Positions 3,321 to 52,515 of a stretch of DNA of 64,000 nucleotides are shown one piece after another. The stretch comes from Escherichia phage SF: sequence record MH359124, one strand, 5' to 3'. Numbering within the stretch: position 1 is the stretch's first letter; every line of letters begins with the position of its first letter. The translations under genes and the position numbers were made by a program. Below the pieces are notes generated by a model. The model did no database searches. It was given only the letters and a program-made list of their open reading frames with translations, and was not told where the DNA came from.

Positions 3321-4301
3321 ATGTTCAACGTTCAAATCAAAAAAGGTATCTATCGTAATAACGAAATCTCTGGTTCTTATGTTGCCACAAAGACCTGGTT
3401 CCCGGCAAAGCTTAATCCTGAATGTTCCCACTTAGGTGATGGTAAAATTTTCGTTATGATTGATGGTTCTGAACGTGGAGTATGGGTCTTCAAATCAGAC
3501 ATCGTAATGGAAGGAGCTGAGACATCACCAGTTGCAGTTGTTGAAAGCACTGAAGATATGAAAACTCGTATCAACAAACGCTTTAAAGTAATGAGCATGA
3601 TGACGAATGGCATTATCGATGGCAAAATTCGTTCACTCATTATTTCAGGTGCAGCTGGTATTGGTAAGACGTATTCTCTGGATAAAGCACTTAATAATGC
3701 TAATGATAACGGTTTCATCAAATACAAAAGCATTAATGGTAAAATCTCTGGTATTGGCCTTTACGAACAACTTTGGCTCAACCGTGATGCAGACAGCGTT
3801 CTCTTAATCGACGACGTTGATGTATTCTCGGATATGGACATCTTGAACCTTCTTAAAGCAGCATTAGATACCGGTGATAAACGCAAAGTTTGTTGGAGCA
3901 CTGCGTCATCTTATCTCGATGATAAGGGTATTGATAAAGAATTTGAGTTTGAAGGTACTATCGTTTTCATTACAAACGTTGATATCGATAAAGAGTTAGA
4001 ACGCGGTTCGAAACTTGCTCCGCACCTTCAAGCTTTAGTATCTCGTTCAGTGTATCTCGACCTTGGAGTACACTCTAATGAAGAGATTATGGTTCGAGTT
4101 GAAGATGTAATATTATCTACTGACATGATGCAGAAACGTGGTCTGACGGATGCAGAAACGTATAAAGCATTGTCCTGGATGAAGGCTAACGTATCTCGTC
4201 TTCGCAATGTATCATTACGTACGGCTCTTTATGTAGCAGATTTTATTTCAACTGATAAAGACGGTTGGGAGGAAATCTCTGAAGTTACACTTCTGAAATA
4301 A
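3321..4301 (+). CDS. Predicted P-loop NTPase (Walker A GAAGIGKT, Walker B LLIDDVD)
   Basis: Motifs in translation; ATG at 3321 with GGAG SD. Confidence 0.5.
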   Translation: MFNVQIKKGIYRNNEISGSYVATKTWFPAKLNPECSHLGDGKIFVMIDGSERGVWVFKSDIVMEGAETSPVAVVESTEDMKTRINKRFKVMSMMTNGIIDGKIRSLIISGAAGIGKTYSLDKALNNANDNGFIKYKSINGKISGIGLYEQLWLNRDADSVLLIDDVDVFSDMDILNLLKAALDTGDKRKVCWSTASSYLDDKGIDKEFEFEGTIVFITNVDIDKELERGSKLAPHLQALVSRSVYLDLGVHSNEEIMVRVEDVILSTDMMQKRGLTDAETYKALSWMKANVSRLRNVSLRTALYVADFISTDKDGWEEISEVTLLK

Positions 4302-4311
4302 AGGTGAAATT

Positions 4312-4653
4312 ATGTTTGAACAATTTATTTACAATCTTTATAACGCAGGTCAGACTTTTTCCAAAGCTATGAAACAATCCGTCGAGGACTATGATAAAGA
4401 AGTTATCAACGGATATACCAATAGAGTTTATAAAACCGATTGTGAAGAAGGAGACTACAAGAGACTGCTCTTGGCCGCGAAGACTCAGGCCTTAATAAAT
4501 CTAGACCGAAAGCAGGTAAAGTTGGCAGGCGACTTCCGAGGTGAACTCTGCGCCATCAGGAATGAATATCGCATTCGTATCGAACACCAACGGAAAAATA
4601 CTACCCAATCCGCTTGGTTCAGTGGAAAAAATACCGAAAAAAGTTTCTTTTAG
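4312..4653 (+). CDS. Hypothetical protein
   Basis: ORF. Confidence 0.5.
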   Translation: MFEQFIYNLYNAGQTFSKAMKQSVEDYDKEVINGYTNRVYKTDCEEGDYKRLLLAAKTQALINLDRKQVKLAGDFRGELCAIRNEYRIRIEHQRKNTTQSAWFSGKNTEKSFF

Positions 4654-4655
4654 TT

Positions 4656-4686
4656 GTTTACAAGGTCTATGGTTATGTTATTATAG
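4656..4686 (+). promoter_or_regulatory. T4-type early promoter
   Basis: GTTTAC ... TATTATAG spacing. Confidence 0.5.
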
Positions 4687-4711
4687 ACCTATCAACTACT
4701 GGAGGTAAAAC

Positions 4712-5301: not shown

Positions 5302-6297
5302 ATGAGCATTACATCTGATGCGGTAAAACATGAAATTAACGGTTTATGTGCTTCACAGATTAAAGTGTGGTTTAAAGACCATAATGATCGCAGAGCACTT
5401 AATTATGAGCAAATTGCTATCCAAGTTCATCAATTACTGACTAGTAAATTTGATTTTCATATGCCGTCTGAAATCTATACTAATCTGCCGCGAGCACTTA
5501 TTAAAGCGTGTAAAGGTTACGGAAAATCAATGGCCGATGGAATCTTCAGCGCGCTGAATAAACTTAACGTTCTGTCGATGATTAACTCTAACAACATTCT
5601 GCGTAATCTAGGACGTACCGATTTGTTCGGTCGTGAACAGTGTAAAATGCCTTTGAAATGGATTGTTGCTCATCTTAACGAGAACCAAACACGTTTTATG
5701 GCCGTATCAGCACGCTTACAAATGGGCCTAGATCGTCAGATGAACTTTAAAACTCATCCACGTTATTCAGGTTCAACAGACTTTTATAAATGTGAGCTTC
5801 AAAAGGTTGGTGGCAAAACTGTCTTAGTAGTTCGTGTAACGTTTGAAGGACGACGTCAAGGATATTTTGACATAATCGGCTCTGGACTTAAACATTGTGG
5901 ATTTATCGACGAAGTTGATATCAAGCGAGACGGCATTGGATACCGTATTGGATATGTTTGTACTCTTAAAGAAGAGATTTCAGGGCCAGCACCAGGACTA
6001 AAAGACGTTAGATATAAAGACGAGCTCGTTGAAGAAATAAAAGAAGTTGAATATGATATCAACCAAGAAGATGCTCTTAAAGACCTTATTGATGAACTGA
6101 ACCAAGACGTTATTCCTGTTCAGAAATTTGAATCAAAACATGCTGAGCAAATCAAATATTTTGAAGCTTTGATTAACGAACTTAATGTAACTATTCAACA
6201 GACTGACGATGAAATCTCACGATTAGCAGGCTTAAACGGTAAAAATAAAACAGAACGAGCTAATCTTATTCAAGTAGTAAAACTTCTTAAGGAATGA
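5302..6297 (+). CDS. Hypothetical protein with C-terminal coiled coil
   Basis: ORF; heptad-like C-terminus. Confidence 0.55.
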   Translation: MSITSDAVKHEINGLCASQIKVWFKDHNDRRALNYEQIAIQVHQLLTSKFDFHMPSEIYTNLPRALIKACKGYGKSMADGIFSALNKLNVLSMINSNNILRNLGRTDLFGREQCKMPLKWIVAHLNENQTRFMAVSARLQMGLDRQMNFKTHPRYSGSTDFYKCELQKVGGKTVLVVRVTFEGRRQGYFDIIGSGLKHCGFIDEVDIKRDGIGYRIGYVCTLKEEISGPAPGLKDVRYKDELVEEIKEVEYDINQEDALKDLIDELNQDVIPVQKFESKHAEQIKYFEALINELNVTIQQTDDEISRLAGLNGKNKTERANLIQVVKLLKE

Positions 6298-6352
6298 TGT
6301 ACAACCAAGGATGGTTAGAGTATAATAAATTTTTCAACATGAGGAATATAAA

Positions 6353-7312
6353 ATGGCTTCTATTACACGTAGAGAACTTATCAAAGAATTTACCTCGAAC
6401 GCATATACCCCAGGTCCTAATCCTATCCGTATGCCTGTAAAGACTCCTGAAGAGATTGAGGAAGTCTGTTCATATTATGGGATTACTTCTCGTAAGTTTA
6501 CTCAATTTGAATGCGTTACTAACACACCCGTTAAAGAGTTCATTAAAAATGGTGAGTTCAGCCGTTTATTAGCCAAACAGAAACTTCGTAATTTTTGTAT
6601 CGGCGGCTACGGACAATATTTTGCTAAACAGTTCAGAAATAACCTTAACAATCTGATGGCCATTGCTTCTCGTATTCGTCCTCAAGCAATTAACATGAAA
6701 CGTTTGAAATATACTTACGATAAGTTAGAAATCATGGTTATCAGCGAGAACGAGTTCACTCTTACGTATAAACCTAAGAATGATAACGTTGCTCGTGTAT
6801 TCCACCAAGCGTTGGAAGTGTTAGGTGATAATATCCACCAGATTAAAGCAATTTATTCTCGTGAGCTTAATATTATCGACCCTATCAAGAATAAGGGCCA
6901 TATCGCTATCCAGGCTCGTGTATCTATTGGTAAAAAGGTTCCTGCGCCATGGTGGCACAAAGACTCTGAATACTATCAAAATCTTAAAAAGGAAAATGCA
7001 TTGTTTGAAGCATCGCTTACTGGGACCCCAATTGAACAGGCCGAAGTCCTAAGTGCTTATTCTACTTCGGGTAAATCAATGTTTAAAGGTTTGCCAAATG
7101 TGTGCAAACTGTCTGCAGTAAAACTAAATGTTTCTAATGACCTTCTTCCGGCCGAAGATTACCATTACAATCAAATCAAGGCCACTGTGGGCCAACTGTC
7201 TGTTGAACTTGACAAAGCACAAGCTAAGCTTCGTGATGCTCAACAAGTAGTTACCAAGCTCCAGTTGCAGTACTCTAAACTTTTTAACGCAATGAATGCA
7301 TTAAAATCATAA
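6353..7312 (+). CDS. Hypothetical protein with C-terminal coiled coil
   Basis: ORF; heptad-like C-terminus. Confidence 0.55.
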   Translation: MASITRRELIKEFTSNAYTPGPNPIRMPVKTPEEIEEVCSYYGITSRKFTQFECVTNTPVKEFIKNGEFSRLLAKQKLRNFCIGGYGQYFAKQFRNNLNNLMAIASRIRPQAINMKRLKYTYDKLEIMVISENEFTLTYKPKNDNVARVFHQALEVLGDNIHQIKAIYSRELNIIDPIKNKGHIAIQARVSIGKKVPAPWWHKDSEYYQNLKKENALFEASLTGTPIEQAEVLSAYSTSGKSMFKGLPNVCKLSAVKLNVSNDLLPAEDYHYNQIKATVGQLSVELDKAQAKLRDAQQVVTKLQLQYSKLFNAMNALKS

Positions 7313-7360
7313 ATCAGTTTACAACCAAGGACGGTTGGAGTATAATCTTTCTATCTTAAC
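7311..7360 (+). repeat. 50-bp promoter cassette (PeSL-like), identical copy at 49117-49166
   Basis: Base-by-base comparison of both loci; contains GTTTAC and TATAAT. Confidence 0.8.
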
Positions 7361-7374
7361 GAGAGGAAAATATT

Positions 7375-8319
7375 ATGACACGTTCACATTACATTGATTA
7401 TTTTGCAGGTCTTATCGCTAACGTTCATGCCCAACGTGCTTCTGGTTCATTAGGATTTGATGTTCCACACAGAGTTGTAGTAAGTGACATTCTTCGCGAT
7501 TTTGGTACATACACAGGCCAAGAAAATCATATCTGTAAAGATACTCAGAATGCATATTCTCATTCATTAGGGACACTGCTTCAATGGTTTAAACGTTCTC
7601 GTTTATTATCTTCTACTGTAGCTCGTGATAACATTAAAAACTTTATGAAGCCGAGCTTTATTAAATCTGTGACATCTAAAATTGATTTAGTTGAATTTAC
7701 TATTATTAACGATGTTAAAAAGACTCATTTGGCTGATTGGTTATCTACCATTCCTGAAACTAAATTTGCTGATAAATTTGCTTGTGAATTCAATAACCAA
7801 GTGAATATGCTTTTTAAACATTCACGTAAATTATTCACAGGCGGTGATGGACGCACAAATAAAGTTCATGTTAAAGATTGGGTTACTGCAGTATTCAAAC
7901 CAACTGGTAATGGTAACGCATCATTGTCAATTGATATCCAGGTTCCTTATTACTACTCACGTAATCTCGGTACCATGAAAGCCGAAGAAATTAATAAGCA
8001 CAACAAAACTATTCGTTCGTTGTCTTATAAACTTCGTATGATGTTACAGACTATGGATGTTGTTGAAATGTTCAGCGAAACCGAAGATAACGGTTCAATG
8101 TTATTCAGTTCTCGTATTCAAATTAAGCTGAAGAACCCTAATGTGTTTAAGCCTATTAAAGAACCTAAAGCAGAAAAGGTTGATATCATGGCTGAAGAAC
8201 GTGAGTACCTCAAATCTCGTCTGAAAGAAGTCGAAGCCCAGATTGCAGAACAAACTAAATCGTTAAAAGCTCTGAATGCGAAAGCGGACGGTTTACGAAA
8301 TGCCATTGAGGTTTTATAA
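7375..8319 (+). CDS. Hypothetical protein with C-terminal coiled coil
   Basis: ORF. Confidence 0.55.
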   Translation: MTRSHYIDYFAGLIANVHAQRASGSLGFDVPHRVVVSDILRDFGTYTGQENHICKDTQNAYSHSLGTLLQWFKRSRLLSSTVARDNIKNFMKPSFIKSVTSKIDLVEFTIINDVKKTHLADWLSTIPETKFADKFACEFNNQVNMLFKHSRKLFTGGDGRTNKVHVKDWVTAVFKPTGNGNASLSIDIQVPYYYSRNLGTMKAEEINKHNKTIRSLSYKLRMMLQTMDVVEMFSETEDNGSMLFSSRIQIKLKNPNVFKPIKEPKAEKVDIMAEEREYLKSRLKEVEAQIAEQTKSLKALNAKADGLRNAIEVL

Positions 8320-37550: not shown

Positions 37551-37925
37551 ATGAATATGTCTCAAGCAATTTTTACTGCAATCACCGAAAACACAACTGT
37601 TGAAGTAGTTTCTCCGCTGGCAACCTACGTTATTCTTGCTCCTAAAACTATTGTATCTCGTATGGAAAACATGGGCAAACGTATCGTACAAATTGTTGGA
37701 GCTGGAAATCAAAAACTTGATTATCTGCGAACCATCAAAGCTTATGAACATTTCCAACTCGAAAAAGGTTCTCCTATCCAGGTAGAACTCGTAAATGGTG
37801 ATATCGTTCGAGCAATGTTCCATCATTTCTATGCATTGAATGACCCATCTAAAGCTGTTCGTTTAATTGCATACGACGCAAACCAAACCGAAATCAACGC
37901 AGATATATCTAAATTACATTTTTAA
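37551..37925 (+). CDS. Hypothetical protein
   Basis: ORF with GAGGAAA SD. Confidence 0.5.
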   Translation: MNMSQAIFTAITENTTVEVVSPLATYVILAPKTIVSRMENMGKRIVQIVGAGNQKLDYLRTIKAYEHFQLEKGSPIQVELVNGDIVRAMFHHFYALNDPSKAVRLIAYDANQTEINADISKLHF

Positions 37926-37976
37926 GTTTACTTCTCCAGTAGTTGTGTTATGATAGACCTATCAACTACTGGAGAA
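37926..37976 (+). promoter_or_regulatory. Early promoter cassette with perfect 14-bp inverted repeat TTCTCCAGTAGTTG/CAACTACTGGAGAA spanning promoter and SD
   Basis: Arms at 37932-37945 and 37963-37976 checked base by base. Confidence 0.6.
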
Positions 37977-46808: not shown

Positions 46809-47120
46809 ATGGTTTATGTATATGCAATAGTTTATCGAGATATGGAAGGATTTACTGTCCCGGTTCCACTTGATGAGCATCGTCCTGCAGTATTTTTTAG
46901 AAAGGATATTGCAGATAAAGTTTTCGATACTTTGAAAACACAGTATAAAACAGATTTAAAAATGGGAGTTCTAAGAATGGTCGAAACTCCGCGTAAGTTC
47001 TGGTTTAATAAGCTTGAAATGAAACACGTTAAACTAGATGCGGAGACGCAAAGATTGTATCAACGAATCCTGGATACAGGCCGTATTGTTAGTATTCCAA
47101 TTGCAGGGACTTTACGATGA
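46809..47120 (+). CDS. Hypothetical protein (dda.1 position)
   Basis: ORF. Confidence 0.5.
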   Translation: MVYVYAIVYRDMEGFTVPVPLDEHRPAVFFRKDIADKVFDTLKTQYKTDLKMGVLRMVETPRKFWFNKLEMKHVKLDAETQRLYQRILDTGRIVSIPIAGTLR

Positions 47121-48430
47121 CATTTGATGATTTGACTGAAGGTCAGAAAAACGCCTTCAACGTTGTTATGAACGCCATTAAAGAAAAGAAACATCACGTA
47201 ACTATTAATGGGCCTGCTGGCACAGGTAAAACAACCCTTACTAGATTCATCGTTGAAGCCCTTATTTCTTCTGGAGAATCAGGTATTATTTTAGCAGCCC
47301 CTACACATGCTGCTAAAAAGGTTCTAAGCAAACTTGCGGGTCAAGAAGCATCGACTATTCATAGCATTCTTAAAATCAACCCAACTACATACGAAGAAAA
47401 CGTATTGTTTGAACAGAAAAAGGTCCCCGACTTAGCCTTGTGCCGTGTACTGTTATTTGATGAAGCGTCAATGTGCGACCGTTCTCTGTTTAAAATAATG
47501 TTAGCTAGTATCCCTAAATGGTGTACAGTAATTGGAATCGGCGACCGATGCCAGATTCGTCCGGTAGACCCAGGCGAATCAACTGCGTATCTAAGTCCTT
47601 TCTTCACTCACAAAGACTTCGTGCAATGCAACCTTACAGAAGTTAAACGTAGCAATGCACCAATTATTGATGTTGCGACTGATATTCGTAATGGTAAATG
47701 GATTTACGATAAAGTAGTTGATGGACACGGTGTTCATGGATATACAGACCTTAAATCGTATATGATGAACTATTTTAACGTCGTTAAAACTCCTGAAGAC
47801 CTTTTCGAAAATCGAATGATGGCATTCACAAATAAGTCGGTGGACAAGTTAAATTCAATTATTCGCCGAAAACTTCTTGAAACAGAAAAACCGTTTATTA
47901 AAGACGAGGTCATTGTTCTACAAGAGCCATTTACTAAGACATATAAGCTAGATGGTAAAAATATGACCGAAATGCTTTTCAATAACGGCCAATTCGTTCG
48001 TATTCGAGATGCTGTAGAAACGTCTACATTCGTTAAAGCACGTGGTGTTTCAGGCGAATATATGATACGATACTGGAATCTTACAGTAGAAACATATGGG
48101 GATGATGAAGAATACATCCGCGAAGATATAAAGGTTATTTCTTCTGAAGAAGAGCTTTATAAATTCAATTTGTTTTTAGCTAAGACCGCAGAAACATACA
48201 AATTTTGGAATAAAGGTGGTAAAGCTCCATGGAGCGAATTCTGGGATGCTAAACGTATGTTCACTAAGGTGAAGGCACTACCAGTATCAACCTTCCATAA
48301 AGCCCAGGGTATGTCTGTTGACACAGCCTTTGTTTATACACCGTGTATCCATTATGCCGATTCAGAATTAGCTAAACAGTTATTGTATGTCGGCACAACT
48401 CGTGGTCGTTTTGACGTCCATTTTATTTGA
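47117..48430 (+). CDS. dda: DNA helicase Dda (SF1B)
   Basis: MTFDDLTEGQKNAFN..., Walker A GPAGTGKTT, matches T4 Dda. Confidence 0.95.
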   Translation: MTFDDLTEGQKNAFNVVMNAIKEKKHHVTINGPAGTGKTTLTRFIVEALISSGESGIILAAPTHAAKKVLSKLAGQEASTIHSILKINPTTYEENVLFEQKKVPDLALCRVLLFDEASMCDRSLFKIMLASIPKWCTVIGIGDRCQIRPVDPGESTAYLSPFFTHKDFVQCNLTEVKRSNAPIIDVATDIRNGKWIYDKVVDGHGVHGYTDLKSYMMNYFNVVKTPEDLFENRMMAFTNKSVDKLNSIIRRKLLETEKPFIKDEVIVLQEPFTKTYKLDGKNMTEMLFNNGQFVRIRDAVETSTFVKARGVSGEYMIRYWNLTVETYGDDEEYIREDIKVISSEEELYKFNLFLAKTAETYKFWNKGGKAPWSEFWDAKRMFTKVKALPVSTFHKAQGMSVDTAFVYTPCIHYADSELAKQLLYVGTTRGRFDVHFI

Positions 48431-48439
48431 GAGAAAATT

Positions 48440-49117
48440 ATGAGCACTGATGTTATTATAGATTTTGAAACATTCGGCAATACATCAAAAGCGGCTGTTA
48501 TTGACCTTGCGGTTATTGCATATAATTCCGACCCTGAAGTTGTTGAATCATTTGAAGAACTTGTTCAACGAGGTAAGCGAATTAAATTTAATCTAGCTTC
48601 TCAGAAAGGGAAGCGAGTTTTCGCTAAATCTACTATGAAATGGTGGAAAGAACAATCGGCTGAAGCACGTAAAAACTTGGCTCCGTCTGAAGACGATGTC
48701 ACTACGCTTGAAGGCATTAAAATCTTTTTAGATTATTGCCGAGCTAATAAAGTTGACCAATGGAAATCACAGATGTGGTGCCGTGGTATGAGCTTTGACT
48801 TCCCGATCTTGGTCGATTTGATTCGTGACCTCTATCGTGATGAAGGTGTTCCTGAACCAGAGATTGATACTGATAAATTAGAACCGGTTAAATTCTGGGC
48901 TCAACGCGATATTCGTACGGCAATCGAAGCTTACTCGTTGACACGAGGATTAAGTATGTGTCCATTACCGATAGGTACGCTAAAAGGATTCGTTGCCCAT
49001 GATAGTATTCATGATTGTGCTAAAGATATTTTGATGTTAAAATATGCTCAGCGTTATGCGCTTGGTCTTGAAGATGTCCCTGAGAATCCAGACCCGTTAA
49101 GTGTAAAACAGCGATAA
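48440..49117 (+). CDS. dexA: Exonuclease A (DnaQ-like 3'-5' exonuclease)
   Basis: Synteny after dda; N-terminal IDFETFG exo I motif. Confidence 0.85.
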   Translation: MSTDVIIDFETFGNTSKAAVIDLAVIAYNSDPEVVESFEELVQRGKRIKFNLASQKGKRVFAKSTMKWWKEQSAEARKNLAPSEDDVTTLEGIKIFLDYCRANKVDQWKSQMWCRGMSFDFPILVDLIRDLYRDEGVPEPEIDTDKLEPVKFWAQRDIRTAIEAYSLTRGLSMCPLPIGTLKGFVAHDSIHDCAKDILMLKYAQRYALGLEDVPENPDPLSVKQR

Positions 49118-49166
49118 AATCAGTTTACAACCAAGGACGGTTGGAGTATAATCTTTCTATCTTAAC
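49117..49166 (+). repeat. Second copy of the 50-bp promoter cassette identical to 7311-7360
   Basis: Base-by-base identity. Confidence 0.8.
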
Positions 49167-49183
49167 CAAACAGGAAAAACATT

Positions 49184-49678
49184 ATGAATATCAATACTAC
49201 GGCTACTTACATCCTGAAAGACGAAAAACAAATCAACTGGTACGGTGCTTCAGTGCGAGCTTATGAAAAGTTTTGTGAAATTTTAGGTGCCACTCAAGGT
49301 AATAGTTTCACTATTGTTAACTTCATTAAACAAGCTGAAGGCCCTTGGTTATTCTTAGAAATTAAAAATTCATATGGTACAATTTCTACTACTGCCATTC
49401 CAAGCACCGACTTTGAACTCTTGATTGAAGAAGTAGAACCCGTTAAAGACATCTGTATTGATATGGATATCGCTTGTATGTACGGTACTCTGATTAAGCA
49501 TATTGAGCCTACTGATTTATTGTGTAAATATGTTTCAATTCGACGCCCATTCGCTGGTCCAGTAAATGGATGGGTAACTGACCAATGGATTGAAGACGGT
49601 GTTGAACTTCTGAACGTTGTTCACGCAAGTGATTTTAGTGTAGTTCCACGTAGTGCTGTGGTTAATATCCTTAATTAA
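49184..49678 (+). CDS. Hypothetical protein, member 1 of tandem paralog triplet
   Basis: Shares C-terminal block DQWIEDGVELLNVVHASDFSVVP with the next two ORFs. Confidence 0.6.
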   Translation: MNINTTATYILKDEKQINWYGASVRAYEKFCEILGATQGNSFTIVNFIKQAEGPWLFLEIKNSYGTISTTAIPSTDFELLIEEVEPVKDICIDMDIACMYGTLIKHIEPTDLLCKYVSIRRPFAGPVNGWVTDQWIEDGVELLNVVHASDFSVVPRSAVVNILN

Positions 49679-49741
49679 TGTTGTACATCCAAGGACGGAT
49701 GGAGTATAATGAATTCAATTTAACAAAGAGAGAGAGAAATT

Positions 49742-50197
49742 ATGATTACTATTGGTGAAATTAAGCGTGTATCAATTGCATCCCGGTCTAAAGCCGCAGG
49801 TCGTCTGGTTGAAGTTATCGGACTTCGCACAAATGGCATGGGACGTATTAAAGAAGTTAAAGTTCGAATCATTCCTAGTTTTGGACGTCAGGATACTCAG
49901 TACGCTTACGTAAGTCCTAAATTCTTGGAAACTCCTGTGAGCGCTCATTTTGCTTCCACTGAACCTAATGTACAGTTCAAATGGGCCCTTTGCAAAGGCG
50001 TTGAATTCCAGACTGATAAAGAATTTGACTTCATCGATGAATACGGTTATCCAAGCAAAACTGATACTATGTGTGGCTTCATTAGTGACCAATGGGTTGA
50101 AGATGGTGAAAAGTTATACAATATCGTATTCTTAGGTGACTTCCGAGTTGTTAAAGAATCTGAAATCACTCGCTATGTGTCTCCTCGTAAAGCTTAA
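49742..50197 (+). CDS. Hypothetical protein, member 2 of tandem paralog triplet
   Basis: SIASRSKAAGRLVEV and DQWVEDGEKLYNIVFLGDFRVV shared. Confidence 0.6.
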   Translation: MITIGEIKRVSIASRSKAAGRLVEVIGLRTNGMGRIKEVKVRIIPSFGRQDTQYAYVSPKFLETPVSAHFASTEPNVQFKWALCKGVEFQTDKEFDFIDEYGYPSKTDTMCGFISDQWVEDGEKLYNIVFLGDFRVVKESEITRYVSPRKA

Positions 50198-50206
50198 GGA
50201 ATTATT

Positions 50207-50626
50207 ATGAATATTGTAAATCTCTCTACAAGTGATTACGTATATGTATCTGTTGCTTCTCGCTCTAAAGTTGCTGGGAAGTTGGTTGAAGTTCTTTCTG
50301 TAAGTTGTGGACTCTTTAGTCCACATCAAGTTAAAGTTCGTGATGCTGATGGCAACATTGGCTACGTCTCAAGCCAATTCATTGAACCAGAAGAAAAAGC
50401 GTTCAAATGGGGACTATGCAGATCGGTTTCTGTTGAAAAAGACCATGAATTCACTATTGCTGCGGCAACTGATGGAACGCCGTGGAAAACTAAGCAAATC
50501 GCCGGATTTATTAGTGACCGTTGGGTAGAAGATGGTGTTAAGCTTTATAACATCGTTTTCGCTGGACAGTTCATGGTAGTTCCTGAATTCCAAATTAAAA
50601 AATATAGCCCAGCTGCTTTCGCATAA
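50207..50626 (+). CDS. Hypothetical protein, member 3 of tandem paralog triplet
   Basis: SVASRSKVAGKLVEV and DRWVEDGVKLYNIVFAGQFMVV shared. Confidence 0.6.
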   Translation: MNIVNLSTSDYVYVSVASRSKVAGKLVEVLSVSCGLFSPHQVKVRDADGNIGYVSSQFIEPEEKAFKWGLCRSVSVEKDHEFTIAAATDGTPWKTKQIAGFISDRWVEDGVKLYNIVFAGQFMVVPEFQIKKYSPAAFA

Positions 50627-50630
50627 AGTT

Positions 50631-50681
50631 GTTTACTTCTCCTCTGGTTTTGATATTATAACCATATCAACCAGAGGAGAA
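50631..50681 (+). promoter_or_regulatory. Early promoter cassette with perfect 13-bp inverted repeat TTCTCCTCTGGTT/AACCAGAGGAGAA spanning promoter and SD
   Basis: Arms at 50637-50649 and 50669-50681. Confidence 0.6.
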
Positions 50682-50685
50682 TAAT

Positions 50686-51210
50686 ATGTTAGTTTACCGC
50701 GTAGAACGTAGTTTTTGTACTCAACGTGAATCATTACCAGGAATTGCTATCGAAGACGGTAAAGCCGTCAGAATTTGGGAAACCTCTTGGAATAAAGAAC
50801 CTCGTTCGCCATACGGTTGGTCGGGCACCGACAACTCTGAAGAAACATGGGAGTTCCTTGATAAGCATGGAATACTCTCAGGTAACTTCTACCATCATGG
50901 CGACAACTACAATGTCTCTAATCGTCCTACAGTAAATGAAGACAAACTCCTTGAACAAAATATCTTAAGATACTATAGAATTGAGCACACATTTGAATTG
51001 AGTGAAGATTGGGCTCAAGGGTTCTATTTTGGATTTGAAAGTGTTGACGCGGTTTATGCATGGTTTGATGACCAGGTGGATGTTGAACTCTTGAAAGCTA
51101 AAGGATACTACATAGCGGTCTATGAAGCACCTGATTTCATCCTCGGAAGTTGTCAATTAATGTTTAGACGTTCATTGGCAGAACAAGTTGATTTTATTTT
51201 GCTAAAATGA
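50686..51210 (+). CDS. Hypothetical protein (motB position)
   Basis: ORF; synteny only. Confidence 0.45.
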   Translation: MLVYRVERSFCTQRESLPGIAIEDGKAVRIWETSWNKEPRSPYGWSGTDNSEETWEFLDKHGILSGNFYHHGDNYNVSNRPTVNEDKLLEQNILRYYRIEHTFELSEDWAQGFYFGFESVDAVYAWFDDQVDVELLKAKGYYIAVYEAPDFILGSCQLMFRRSLAEQVDFILLK

Positions 51211-51267: not shown

Positions 51268-51495
51268 ATGAAACGTCAAATCATTAAAAACGTAACTACT
51301 GATTCAAACATCGATGAGTTTGAAGATGTTCTGTTTAATCCTGATTTAGTTGTTGTACAGAAAAACTGGACCGAATTTTTATGCTACACTGAAGTGGTTT
51401 ACGTTTACGAAAAACTCGGCGATGAAATGCCTATCTATGGTATCTTCCGTGAAATCACTGAAAATGGTACAACTTATTGGAAGGAAACTTACTAA
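51268..51495 (+). CDS. Hypothetical protein
   Basis: ORF with GAGGAG SD. Confidence 0.5.
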
Positions 51496-51905
51496 TGGCT
51501 AATAAATTCCGCGTTAACTCATGGTACCAATTTATAGATAAACGTGCCCAAGAAGAGTTTATTAAAGACCACACTGATAATGGGATTTATGCACGACGTC
51601 TTGGCATGGAACCATTTAAAGTATTAGATGTTGACCATCTTGGACGTCCTACTAAAATTGTGACATCTACTGGCACGGTTGGATACGCAACAGGCGGTGA
51701 TATCCTTGATGAAAACTTTATCTGGCTCTCCACGAATGAATCAGAGTTCTTTGACGAAGTTGAAAATCCATATCAAGCGTCCGAAGAGCAAGATTCTGGT
51801 AAACTTGACGAATTGTCTGAATTTCCAGTGATGACGATTACTATCGAAAATAACGACCAGGCATGGTCTTTGTATCAAATGTTGAAAGCACATTTTAAGG
51901 AATAA
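51495..51905 (+). CDS. Hypothetical protein
   Basis: ORF; TAATG coupling. Confidence 0.5.
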
Positions 51906-52089: not shown

Positions 52090-52515
52090 ATGGCTTTTAA
52101 AGGTTTTGAAGTTGGTAAGAAATATCGTATTATCAAAGGACAGGAAGATAATTTCTTGAGAATTCTTAATACGACTGGTAAACGTCTTAATACTAATCTG
52201 CATACTACTTTATTGTCCAAAGATTTTATTGTGGAAGAGATGATTGGTTACGGCGTTTCGGTTATTGCCGTAGAAGCCGTAGGCGATTATGGCCGAACTA
52301 TTCATAGTATGCAAGGTGATATTCTGCTTTATGGTGCAGAATTTAAATTCTTTGAAGAAGTTCCGGAACCAGATACATCTGTCGATTTCAAAAAAGGCTC
52401 TGTAGAATTTGTTGACGGTTCGGTGATCGTATCAGGTGATGTGGTCATTACAGTTAAAAGTGAACAAGGGCGTTTGGCTGCAATTGATGCACTTCAGAAA
52501 ATTAAATTTAAATAA
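52090..52515 (+). CDS. Hypothetical protein
   Basis: ORF. Confidence 0.5.
   Translation: MAFKGFEVGKKYRIIKGQEDNFLRILNTTGKRLNTNLHTTLLSKDFIVEEMIGYGVSVIAVEAVGDYGRTIHSMQGDILLYGAEFKFFEEVPEPDTSVDFKKGSVEFVDGSVIVSGDVVITVKSEQGRLAAIDALQKIKFK

Follow-up and report, generated by a model that had tools for sequence, protein, structure and literature searches.

Three consecutive genes downstream of dexA in Escherichia phage SF (sequence record MH359124) very probably represent the MotB module of an RB69-like phage. These open reading frames (ORFs), here called ORF1, ORF2 and ORF3, occupy positions 49184-50626 of the 64,000-nucleotide (nt) stretch that we analysed (the window), which belongs to a T4-type phage of the RB69 group (Mosigvirus). 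The module would consist of a motB.1 gene, a motB gene and an old, divergent second motB gene, with early expression and a function predicted to resemble that of T4 MotB. A set of one motB.1 and two motB genes was already published for RB69 in 2021 (PMC7827196), and the cluster described here re-identifies this known arrangement. A sequence-only reading of the same DNA had described three tandem paralogs formed by local expansion of an accessory gene family. The comparisons below instead indicate an old conserved pair accompanied by a domain-level relative, a set that appears to have arisen by old duplication and domain recombination.

Two MotB proteins and one domain relative

ORF2 matches T4 MotB over its full length with 48% identity (E = 7e-43) and is 92% identical to RB69 MotB. 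ORF3 is 36% identical to T4 MotB, and its RB69 counterpart is RB69p010, a second gene described as 'MotB-like'. The two proteins are full-length paralogs of each other, with 45% identity over 137 residues (E = 2e-32). In contrast, the BLASTP matches of ORF1 to ORF2 (E = 2e-09) and to ORF3 (E = 1e-09) involve only the last 30-36 residues of ORF1. When the MotB.1 and MotB profiles are compared with hhalign, their C-terminal parts align over 52 columns (probability 98.7%, E = 1.5e-16), whereas no alignment is obtained between their N-terminal halves.

The Pfam family PF17613 (motB) recognizes all three proteins above its gathering cut-off of 25 bits, with scores of 126 bits for ORF2, 75 for ORF3 and 34 for ORF1. 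However, the 162-position profile is covered from 2 to 157 by ORF2 and from 7 to 162 by ORF3, but only from 78 to 153 by ORF1. The PHROG families of the cluster genes are 'MotB-like' and phrog_2333, the latter being the MotB.1 family, which ORF1 matches along residues 1-164 (E = 2.5e-81). The ORF1 product is 100% identical to a protein of Escherichia phage SF. Because its N-terminal half is unrelated to those of ORF2 and ORF3, ORF1 is related to them at the domain level only. Judged by these alignments, ORF1 is a C-terminal-domain relative of MotB, neither MotB itself nor a third copy.

These results separate the parts of the paralogy claim. The C-terminal block reported earlier for all three proteins is indeed common to ORF1, ORF2 and ORF3 (D-W-[VI]-EDG-x-L-x-N-[IV]-V...F-x-VV) far beyond chance, as the BLASTP, hhalign and PF17613 values given above agree. 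The N-terminal block that had also been assigned to all three (ASRSK-AG-LVEV) is found only in ORF2 (ASRSKAAGRLVEV) and ORF3 (ASRSKVAGKLVEV). Thus, the description of tandem paralogs following dexA applies over the full length to ORF2 and ORF3, whereas ORF1 shares with them the C-terminal domain alone.

Neither a regular-expression search nor profile hidden Markov models run on six-frame ORFs detected the shared domain in the 64-kb window beyond ORF1-3. The next gene downstream, ORF4, was considered as a fourth MotB member and rejected, as its hhalign probability against the MotB profile is 0.2. All four ORFs carry the name 'transcriptional regulator' in some records.

A common C-terminal barrel and different N-terminal domains

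Each of the three proteins is predicted to comprise two small SH3-like beta-barrels connected by a flexible linker, with the C-terminal barrel common to all. The N-terminal barrels of ORF2 and ORF3 are predicted to be KOW-like, and that of ORF1 to be of a different, GoF/Frd.2 'LSm-like' type. An AlphaFold2 model of ORF2 made from the family alignment (predicted local distance difference test (pLDDT) score of 85) contains beta domains at residues 7-57 and 86-145 and a disordered linker. The equivalent model of ORF1 (pLDDT 78.7) has beta domains at residues 8-83 and 116-161, and residues 86-106 are disordered. Its N-terminal domain is built from strands 8-11, 42-49, 55-61, 67-73 and 80-83 and a helix at 26-37. 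ORF1 therefore divides into an acidic N-terminal beta-barrel (roughly residues 1-83), the disordered linker and a MotB-type C-terminal barrel (roughly 112-164). A sequence search of the PDB with ORF2 returned no relative up to an E value of 1. Resemblance to KOW, Tudor and SH3-like barrels (NusG C-terminal domain, Spt5 KOW, 53BP1 tandem Tudor and KIN17 tandem SH3-like) is at the level of fold only, with 10-19% identity between these readers and the cluster proteins and no sequence-level relationship.

The basic N-terminal domain of T4 MotB, which has an isoelectric point (pI) of 9.65 in a protein of pI 9.2, is kept only by ORF2 (N-terminal domain 10.35, whole protein 8.5). ORF3 is neutral, carrying no net charge (pI 6.7), and ORF1 is acidic, with the same pI as T4 MotB.1 (4.6 for both). 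ORF2 also resembles T4 MotB in its two-domain layout, its early promoter and its location in the dexA-cef neighbourhood, and differs from it in a linker that is about 10 amino acids (aa) shorter. ORF3 has the same architecture as T4 MotB, but its linker is shorter by about 23 residues and its net charge is no longer positive (N-terminal pI of 5.6 versus 9.65). The cluster also corresponds to that of RB69 (RB69p011 motB, RB69p010 and motB.1), in which gene order is the same and protein identity is 91-92%.

ORF1 and T4 MotB.1 are 42% identical. Their N-terminal domains are predicted to belong to one fold class, and they have in common a C-terminal core (DPTDLLC...GWVTDQWIEDGVELLNVVH), the residues of which are invariant in a 51-sequence alignment. 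They differ in the linker, which in ORF1 holds a 20-residue insertion that is disordered in the model. Across the MotB.1 family, conservation is highest in the C-terminal domain, with 72-82% identity beside varied or unrelated N-terminal domains. That MotB and MotB.1 have a shared C-terminal domain and different N-terminal domains was described by Patterson-West et al. in 2021 (PMC7827196), where the MotB.1 family (phrog_2333) is 'category 2'.

The MotB.1-type C-terminal core is also fused to several unrelated N-terminal regions in proteins of 140-252 aa (P0058, P0030, P0041 and P0108). One of these, P0058 (145 aa, Klebsiella-phage type), joins a MotB-like KOW N-terminal domain (VSTLSRSRLAGK...) to a MotB.1-type C-terminal domain. 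Because the core is found with several N-terminal regions, the two halves appear to recombine between family members. Separately, the last approximately 110 nt of motB.1 (window 49567-49678; PP01 locus 2810-2921) have about 90% nt identity to PP01 and T4, third codon positions included, and the remainder of the gene is barely alignable. This conserved 3′ end may mark a junction formed by recombination, or it may serve some additional function.

Kinship of the MotB.1 N-terminal domain with GoF/Frd.2 ('LSm-like') proteins has been proposed (PMC12152347). With hhalign, this domain of ORF1 gives a weak match to a GoF-family 141-aa ORF at 52090-52515 (probability 60%, E = 8.5e-5) and no match to the goF-like ORF at 51477-51905, and its Tudor, PWWP and SH3 matches score equal to the Hfq-like ones. 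An LSm-like barrel raises the alternative that ORF1 acts on RNA, perhaps by affecting mRNA stability in the manner of GoF(D25Y), and has only ancestry in common with MotB. We consider this rather improbable, as the acidic surface of ORF1 would be unfavourable for RNA binding and the fold matches fit Tudor, PWWP or SH3 domains as well as Hfq. In addition, T4 MotB.1 was inert in an mCherry RNA reporter, although the protein was given as 13.8 kDa, the size of a truncated 119-aa form.

The ORFs at 51477-51905 (142 aa) and 52090-52515 (141 aa) each have matches to phrog_622 and to goF-related PHROGs, and thus indicate that the region also contains another small family of paralogs (the GoF/LSm-like group).

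An old pair maintained by selection

Synonymous divergence (dS) between ORF2 and ORF3 is saturated at 2.7, and non-synonymous divergence (dN) is 0.53. A neighbour-joining tree of 53 MotB proteins places the ORF3 type on a long separate branch, and a clade uniting ORF3-type with ORF2-type proteins is recovered in just 1 of 50 bootstraps. Together, these two results reject ORF3 as a recent duplicate of ORF2.

Homologs were counted by using tblastn against 50,697 phage records, where close ORF2-type genes were defined by at least 60% identity and close ORF3-type genes by at least 80%. Some form of MotB is present in 770-776 of these records. A close ORF2-type gene occurs in roughly 201 and a close ORF3-type gene in roughly 205, the ORF3-type proteins being 82-99% identical across the latter. 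The two types are adjacent in every locus inspected (RB69, mobillu, Tequatrovirus PP01 and the window). Comparisons among the window, mobillu, RB69 and PP01 yield dN/dS values of 0.13 for ORF1, 0.19-0.35 for ORF2 and 0.10-0.19 for ORF3, indicating that all three genes are maintained by purifying selection.

These observations bear directly on whether an accessory or anti-defence family could have expanded locally in recent times, with tandem copies under arms-race selection. The genes do lie in tandem within a hyperplastic, non-essential region that has repeated promoter cassettes, and motB copy number does vary, with one copy in T4 and JS98 and two in RB69, PP01 and the window. However, ORF2 and ORF3 have diverged to 45% identity with saturated dS, the two types group as sisters in almost none of the bootstraps, and ORF1 is a different gene rather than a copy. 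Moreover, the high identity among ORF3-type proteins and their low dN/dS are signs of purifying rather than diversifying selection. Evidence for anti-defence, from PADLOC or otherwise, did not come to light, although no search aimed at it was made. We therefore hold a recent expansion to be very unlikely. The expansion proposed in the sequence-only reading, if understood as recent or lineage-specific, fails on the saturated dS, on the tree and on the presence of both gene types in about 200 records.

Lateral transfer of the ORF2-ORF3 pair was considered because the window and PP01 copies of these genes are separated by a low dS. This idea is weakened by the modest contrast between the segment spanning the MotB.1 C-terminal core, ORF2 and ORF3 (49567-50631), which has 80% nt identity to PP01 by blastn, and its neighbours, for which the corresponding values are 69% (dexA) and 75-78.5% (dda and cef-goF). 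Such mild mosaicism would be compatible with either transfer or unequal rates, and is not proof of lateral transfer.

Early promoter cassettes

A 22-nt core (CCAAGGACGGNTGGAGTATAAT) is present in four copies in the window, compared with zero expected from 100 shuffles, and two of these copies lie 5′ of ORF1 and ORF2. The ORF1 cassette is identical at all 50 of 50 nt to positions 7311-7360 of the window, 42 kb apart. Its promoter matches the sigma-70 consensus at 11 of 12 positions and that of ORF2 at 10 of 12, and the spacer stem differs between the two copies by a compensatory change (Table 1).

An inverted repeat between the -35 and -10 elements defines one of the five subclasses of promoter-early stem-loop (PeSL) elements (Arbiol et al. 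2010, PMC2839356). The window cassettes resemble PeSLs (PMC2839356; Comeau et al. 2014, PMC4122927) in being repeated, intergenic, near-consensus sigma-70 promoter cassettes of a hyperplastic region, and apparently also in lying where gene order changes from one phage to another. They differ in the phages concerned, as PeSLs were defined in RB49/phi1, PST/T4 and nt-1/KVP40, and RB69-like phages are not among these. The predicted folds of the ORF1 cassette (free energy (dG) of -7.5 kcal/mol, z = 0.06) and the ORF2 cassette (-9.4 kcal/mol, z = -1.5) are not distinguishable from those of shuffled sequences. A stable stem-loop is thus unsupported for either cassette, the ORF1 stem being only 5 bp long, and terminator activity is doubtful because the folds are no stabler than those of shuffled sequence. 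We regard the cassettes as PeSL-like early promoters of doubtful terminator function. The earlier description of PeSL copies preceding two of the genes holds for the repeat and is weak for the stem-loop.

ORF2 and ORF3 are separated by a 9-nt gap devoid of any promoter, and so probably form one transcription unit. Plausible ribosome-binding sites precede all three ORFs. According to this arrangement, host sigma-70 RNA polymerase would transcribe the genes immediately after infection from two early promoters, one before ORF1 and one before ORF2, with ORF3 transcribed along with ORF2.

In several records, the ORF2 homolog is given an earlier start codon, and the resulting reading frame of 165-172 aa crosses the promoter cassette, for example at mobillu locus 3877-4395. 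This extension is excluded in the window by a stop codon at 49721-49723. Elsewhere, cassette copies at 6291-6340 and 7311-7360 precede ORFs of 319 aa (6353-7312) and 314 aa (7375-8319). These come after a 331-aa ORF (5302-6297), and the three look like another tandem set of similar-sized genes.

Genomic setting and the position of motB.2

Over the 3 kb surrounding the cluster, the window has 96-98% nt identity to Mosigvirus genomes (PHB12, PhAPEC2 and mobillu) with the same gene order, and over 6 kb it has 95% nt identity to RB69. The order on the + strand is dda, dexA, ORF1, ORF2, ORF3, ORF4, cef, a goF-like gene, a zinc-ribbon gene, the 141-aa gene and gene 39 (Table 1). The dexA genes of relatives carry the annotation exonuclease A, and the MotB genes sit between dexA and cef in the early region of T4, PP01, JS98, RB69 and mobillu.

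Table 1 Features of the MotB cluster and its flanks in the window
Feature	Position	Strand	Details
dda	47117-48430	+	
dexA (exonuclease A), upstream neighbour	48440-49117	+	Pfam PF16473 (Rv2179c-like exonuclease), E = 4e-20; PHROG 255 exonuclease, E = 5e-81
PeSL-like early-promoter cassette, 5′ of ORF1	49117-49166	+	TTTACA-N17-TATAAT; spacer inverted repeat CAACC/GGTTG, 5 bp
ORF1, 164 aa, MotB.1 ortholog	49184-49678	+	PHROG 2333, full length; Pfam motB, C-terminal part
Second cassette copy, 5′ of ORF2	49675-49724	+	TGTACA-N17-TATAAT; spacer stem CATCC/GGATG
ORF2, 151 aa, MotB (copy nearest T4 MotB)	49742-50197	+	Predicted basic KOW/SH3-like N-terminal domain and C-terminal barrel
ORF3, 139 aa, divergent second MotB paralog of RB69p010 type	50207-50626	+	Shorter linker; zero net charge
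Promoter and strong hairpin 5′ of ORF4, 3′ boundary of the cluster	50632-50685	+	TTTACT-N16-TATTAT; hairpin 50637-50681
ORF4, 174 aa, T4 motB.2 homolog	50686-51210	+	PHROG 1106, E = 3e-45; RB69 annotation motB.2

The location of motB.2 distinguishes the two arrangements seen among these phages. The order in T4, PP01 and JS98 is dexA, motB.2, motB.1, motB, followed in PP01 by an ORF3-type gene, whereas in the window, RB69 and mobillu motB.2 (ORF4) comes after the MotB genes. The promoter-hairpin element moves with the gene, as window positions 50625-50706 have about 75% nt identity to the intergenic region that follows dexA in T4, PP01 and JS98. This pattern fits cassette-bounded shuffling of the kind proposed for PeSLs, which would account for the move of motB.2.

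The hairpin preceding ORF4 is strong (dG = -23.9 kcal/mol, z = -5.5), with the -10 element in its loop and the Shine-Dalgarno sequence GAGGAG in its 3′ arm. The region upstream of T4 motB.2 has the same promoter-hairpin architecture with another stem sequence (dG = -23.7 kcal/mol, z = -5.5). On this layout, transcripts initiated at the ORF4 promoter would lack the 5′ arm of the hairpin, and read-through transcripts from ORF1-3 would have their ribosome site paired. Similar promoter-hairpin cassettes lie at 4641-4704 and 37911-37974 of the window.

Predicted function of the module

T4 MotB is an abundant early protein that is toxic when expressed alone. It binds DNA, whether modified or unmodified, tightly, cooperatively and without sequence specificity, and has a predicted pI of 9.23. 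The host proteins H-NS and StpA co-purify with it only if DNA is present, and it overrides the H-NS footprint at proV. With T4 MotB, 75 host genes are upregulated, about one-third of them belonging to the H-NS regulon, and burst size increases 2-fold (PMC6070864, PMC7827196). That the founder of the family is toxic, early and DNA-binding and alters H-NS binding bears out the earlier proposal of a host-interaction family, here one of host takeover.

The same activity is inferred for ORF2 because the charge pattern of T4 MotB is kept. Most likely, ORF2 would coat DNA without sequence specificity and reshape H-NS/StpA-DNA complexes, and by analogy with T4 MotB this action would de-repress H-NS-silenced genes and raise burst size. 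On the basis of net charge alone, the neutral ORF3 and the acidic ORF1 are unlikely to coat DNA as MotB does. These two proteins are most likely non-redundant, with the C-terminal barrel directing them to the same partner or complex as ORF2 and each N-terminal domain contributing an activity of its own.

Several points weigh against this interpretation. Function is transferred here from a T4 MotB that is 48% identical to ORF2 and 36% identical to ORF3. The proposal that ORF1 and ORF3 do not coat DNA derives from net charge. Furthermore, deletion of T4 motB.1 produced no phenotype, and MotB.1 had no effect on the RNA reporter tested (PMC12152347).

The C-terminal barrel could also be an oligomerization or partner-binding module, through which the acidic ORF1 and the neutral ORF3 enter mixed complexes that tune or neutralize the toxic DNA coating by ORF2. 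No other part is shared by all three proteins, and none is better conserved in the MotB.1 family. The charges of the paralogs are complementary, and their genes are co-located and predicted to be co-expressed early. T4 MotB is both toxic and a cooperative DNA binder, and T4 MotB.1 runs partly as a dimer, but AlphaFold3 gives no confident homomultimers of T4 MotB.1 (PMC12152347), and many phages have motB with only one partner. We judge such a tuning role to be unlikely. A related proposal, which we put forward only as a long shot, is that the barrel is a docking or oligomerization module of a nucleoid-targeting scaffold bearing interchangeable N-terminal 'heads' (basic KOW-like, neutral KOW-like, acidic LSm-like and others), with ORF1-3 assembled in a mixed complex. 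Natural chimeras such as P0058 support the modularity in this proposal but not the complex.

Disrupted motB.1 genes in two reference sequences

The motB.1 gene of the T4 reference (NC_000866/AF158101) contains one extra G (caatggattGgaag; caatggattGgaagat), which cuts the protein to 119 aa. In the T4 gene (NC_000866 locus, 3795-4151 on the minus strand), comparison with window 49586-49600 shows that the insertion changes the reading frame immediately ahead of the conserved C-terminal core, whose sequence continues in the +1 frame as EDGVELLNVVHAGEYSVVPRSAVVAILN followed by a stop. The extra G is present only in AF158101 and NC_000866. Thirteen other records (T4, T4T, RB55 and RB59) have 1 nt fewer at this site, and the resequenced T4 genome MT984581 annotates a 143-aa MotB.1. 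Kim et al. (2025) give MotB.1 as 13.8 kDa, which matches the truncated size.

In the RB69 reference (NC_004928 locus 2447-2943), motB.1 is split into 132 aa and a separate 29-aa ORF, whereas the window has an uninterrupted ORF1 of 164 aa. The RB69 gene is split by two 1-nt insertions (CCGTTTCGC and GACGGTTGTT) that the window and mobillu lack, and these explain the 29-aa peptide ('category 3') published for RB69 beside its two motB genes and one motB.1 (PMC7827196). The split could reflect either a sequencing error or a strain-specific disruption.

Disruption of motB.1 in both reference sequences might suggest that a non-functional duplicate is decaying within the cluster. We consider this extremely unlikely, given that the T4 disruption is absent from the 13 other T4, RB55 and RB59 records, ORF1 is intact in both the window and mobillu, the dN/dS values of ORF1 and ORF3 are low (0.13 and 0.10-0.19), and all three ORFs have plausible ribosome-binding sites.

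Meaning for MotB biology

By itself, the cluster adds little to a gene family and a copy-number pattern that are already published. Two points have practical value for work on T4 early genes. T4 MotB.1 should be studied as a 143-aa protein, because the 119-aa annotation is without most of the conserved C-terminal barrel. In addition, since the paralogs are not equivalent and only one keeps the basic N-terminal domain, RB69-like phages offer a natural test of the roles of the MotB domains.

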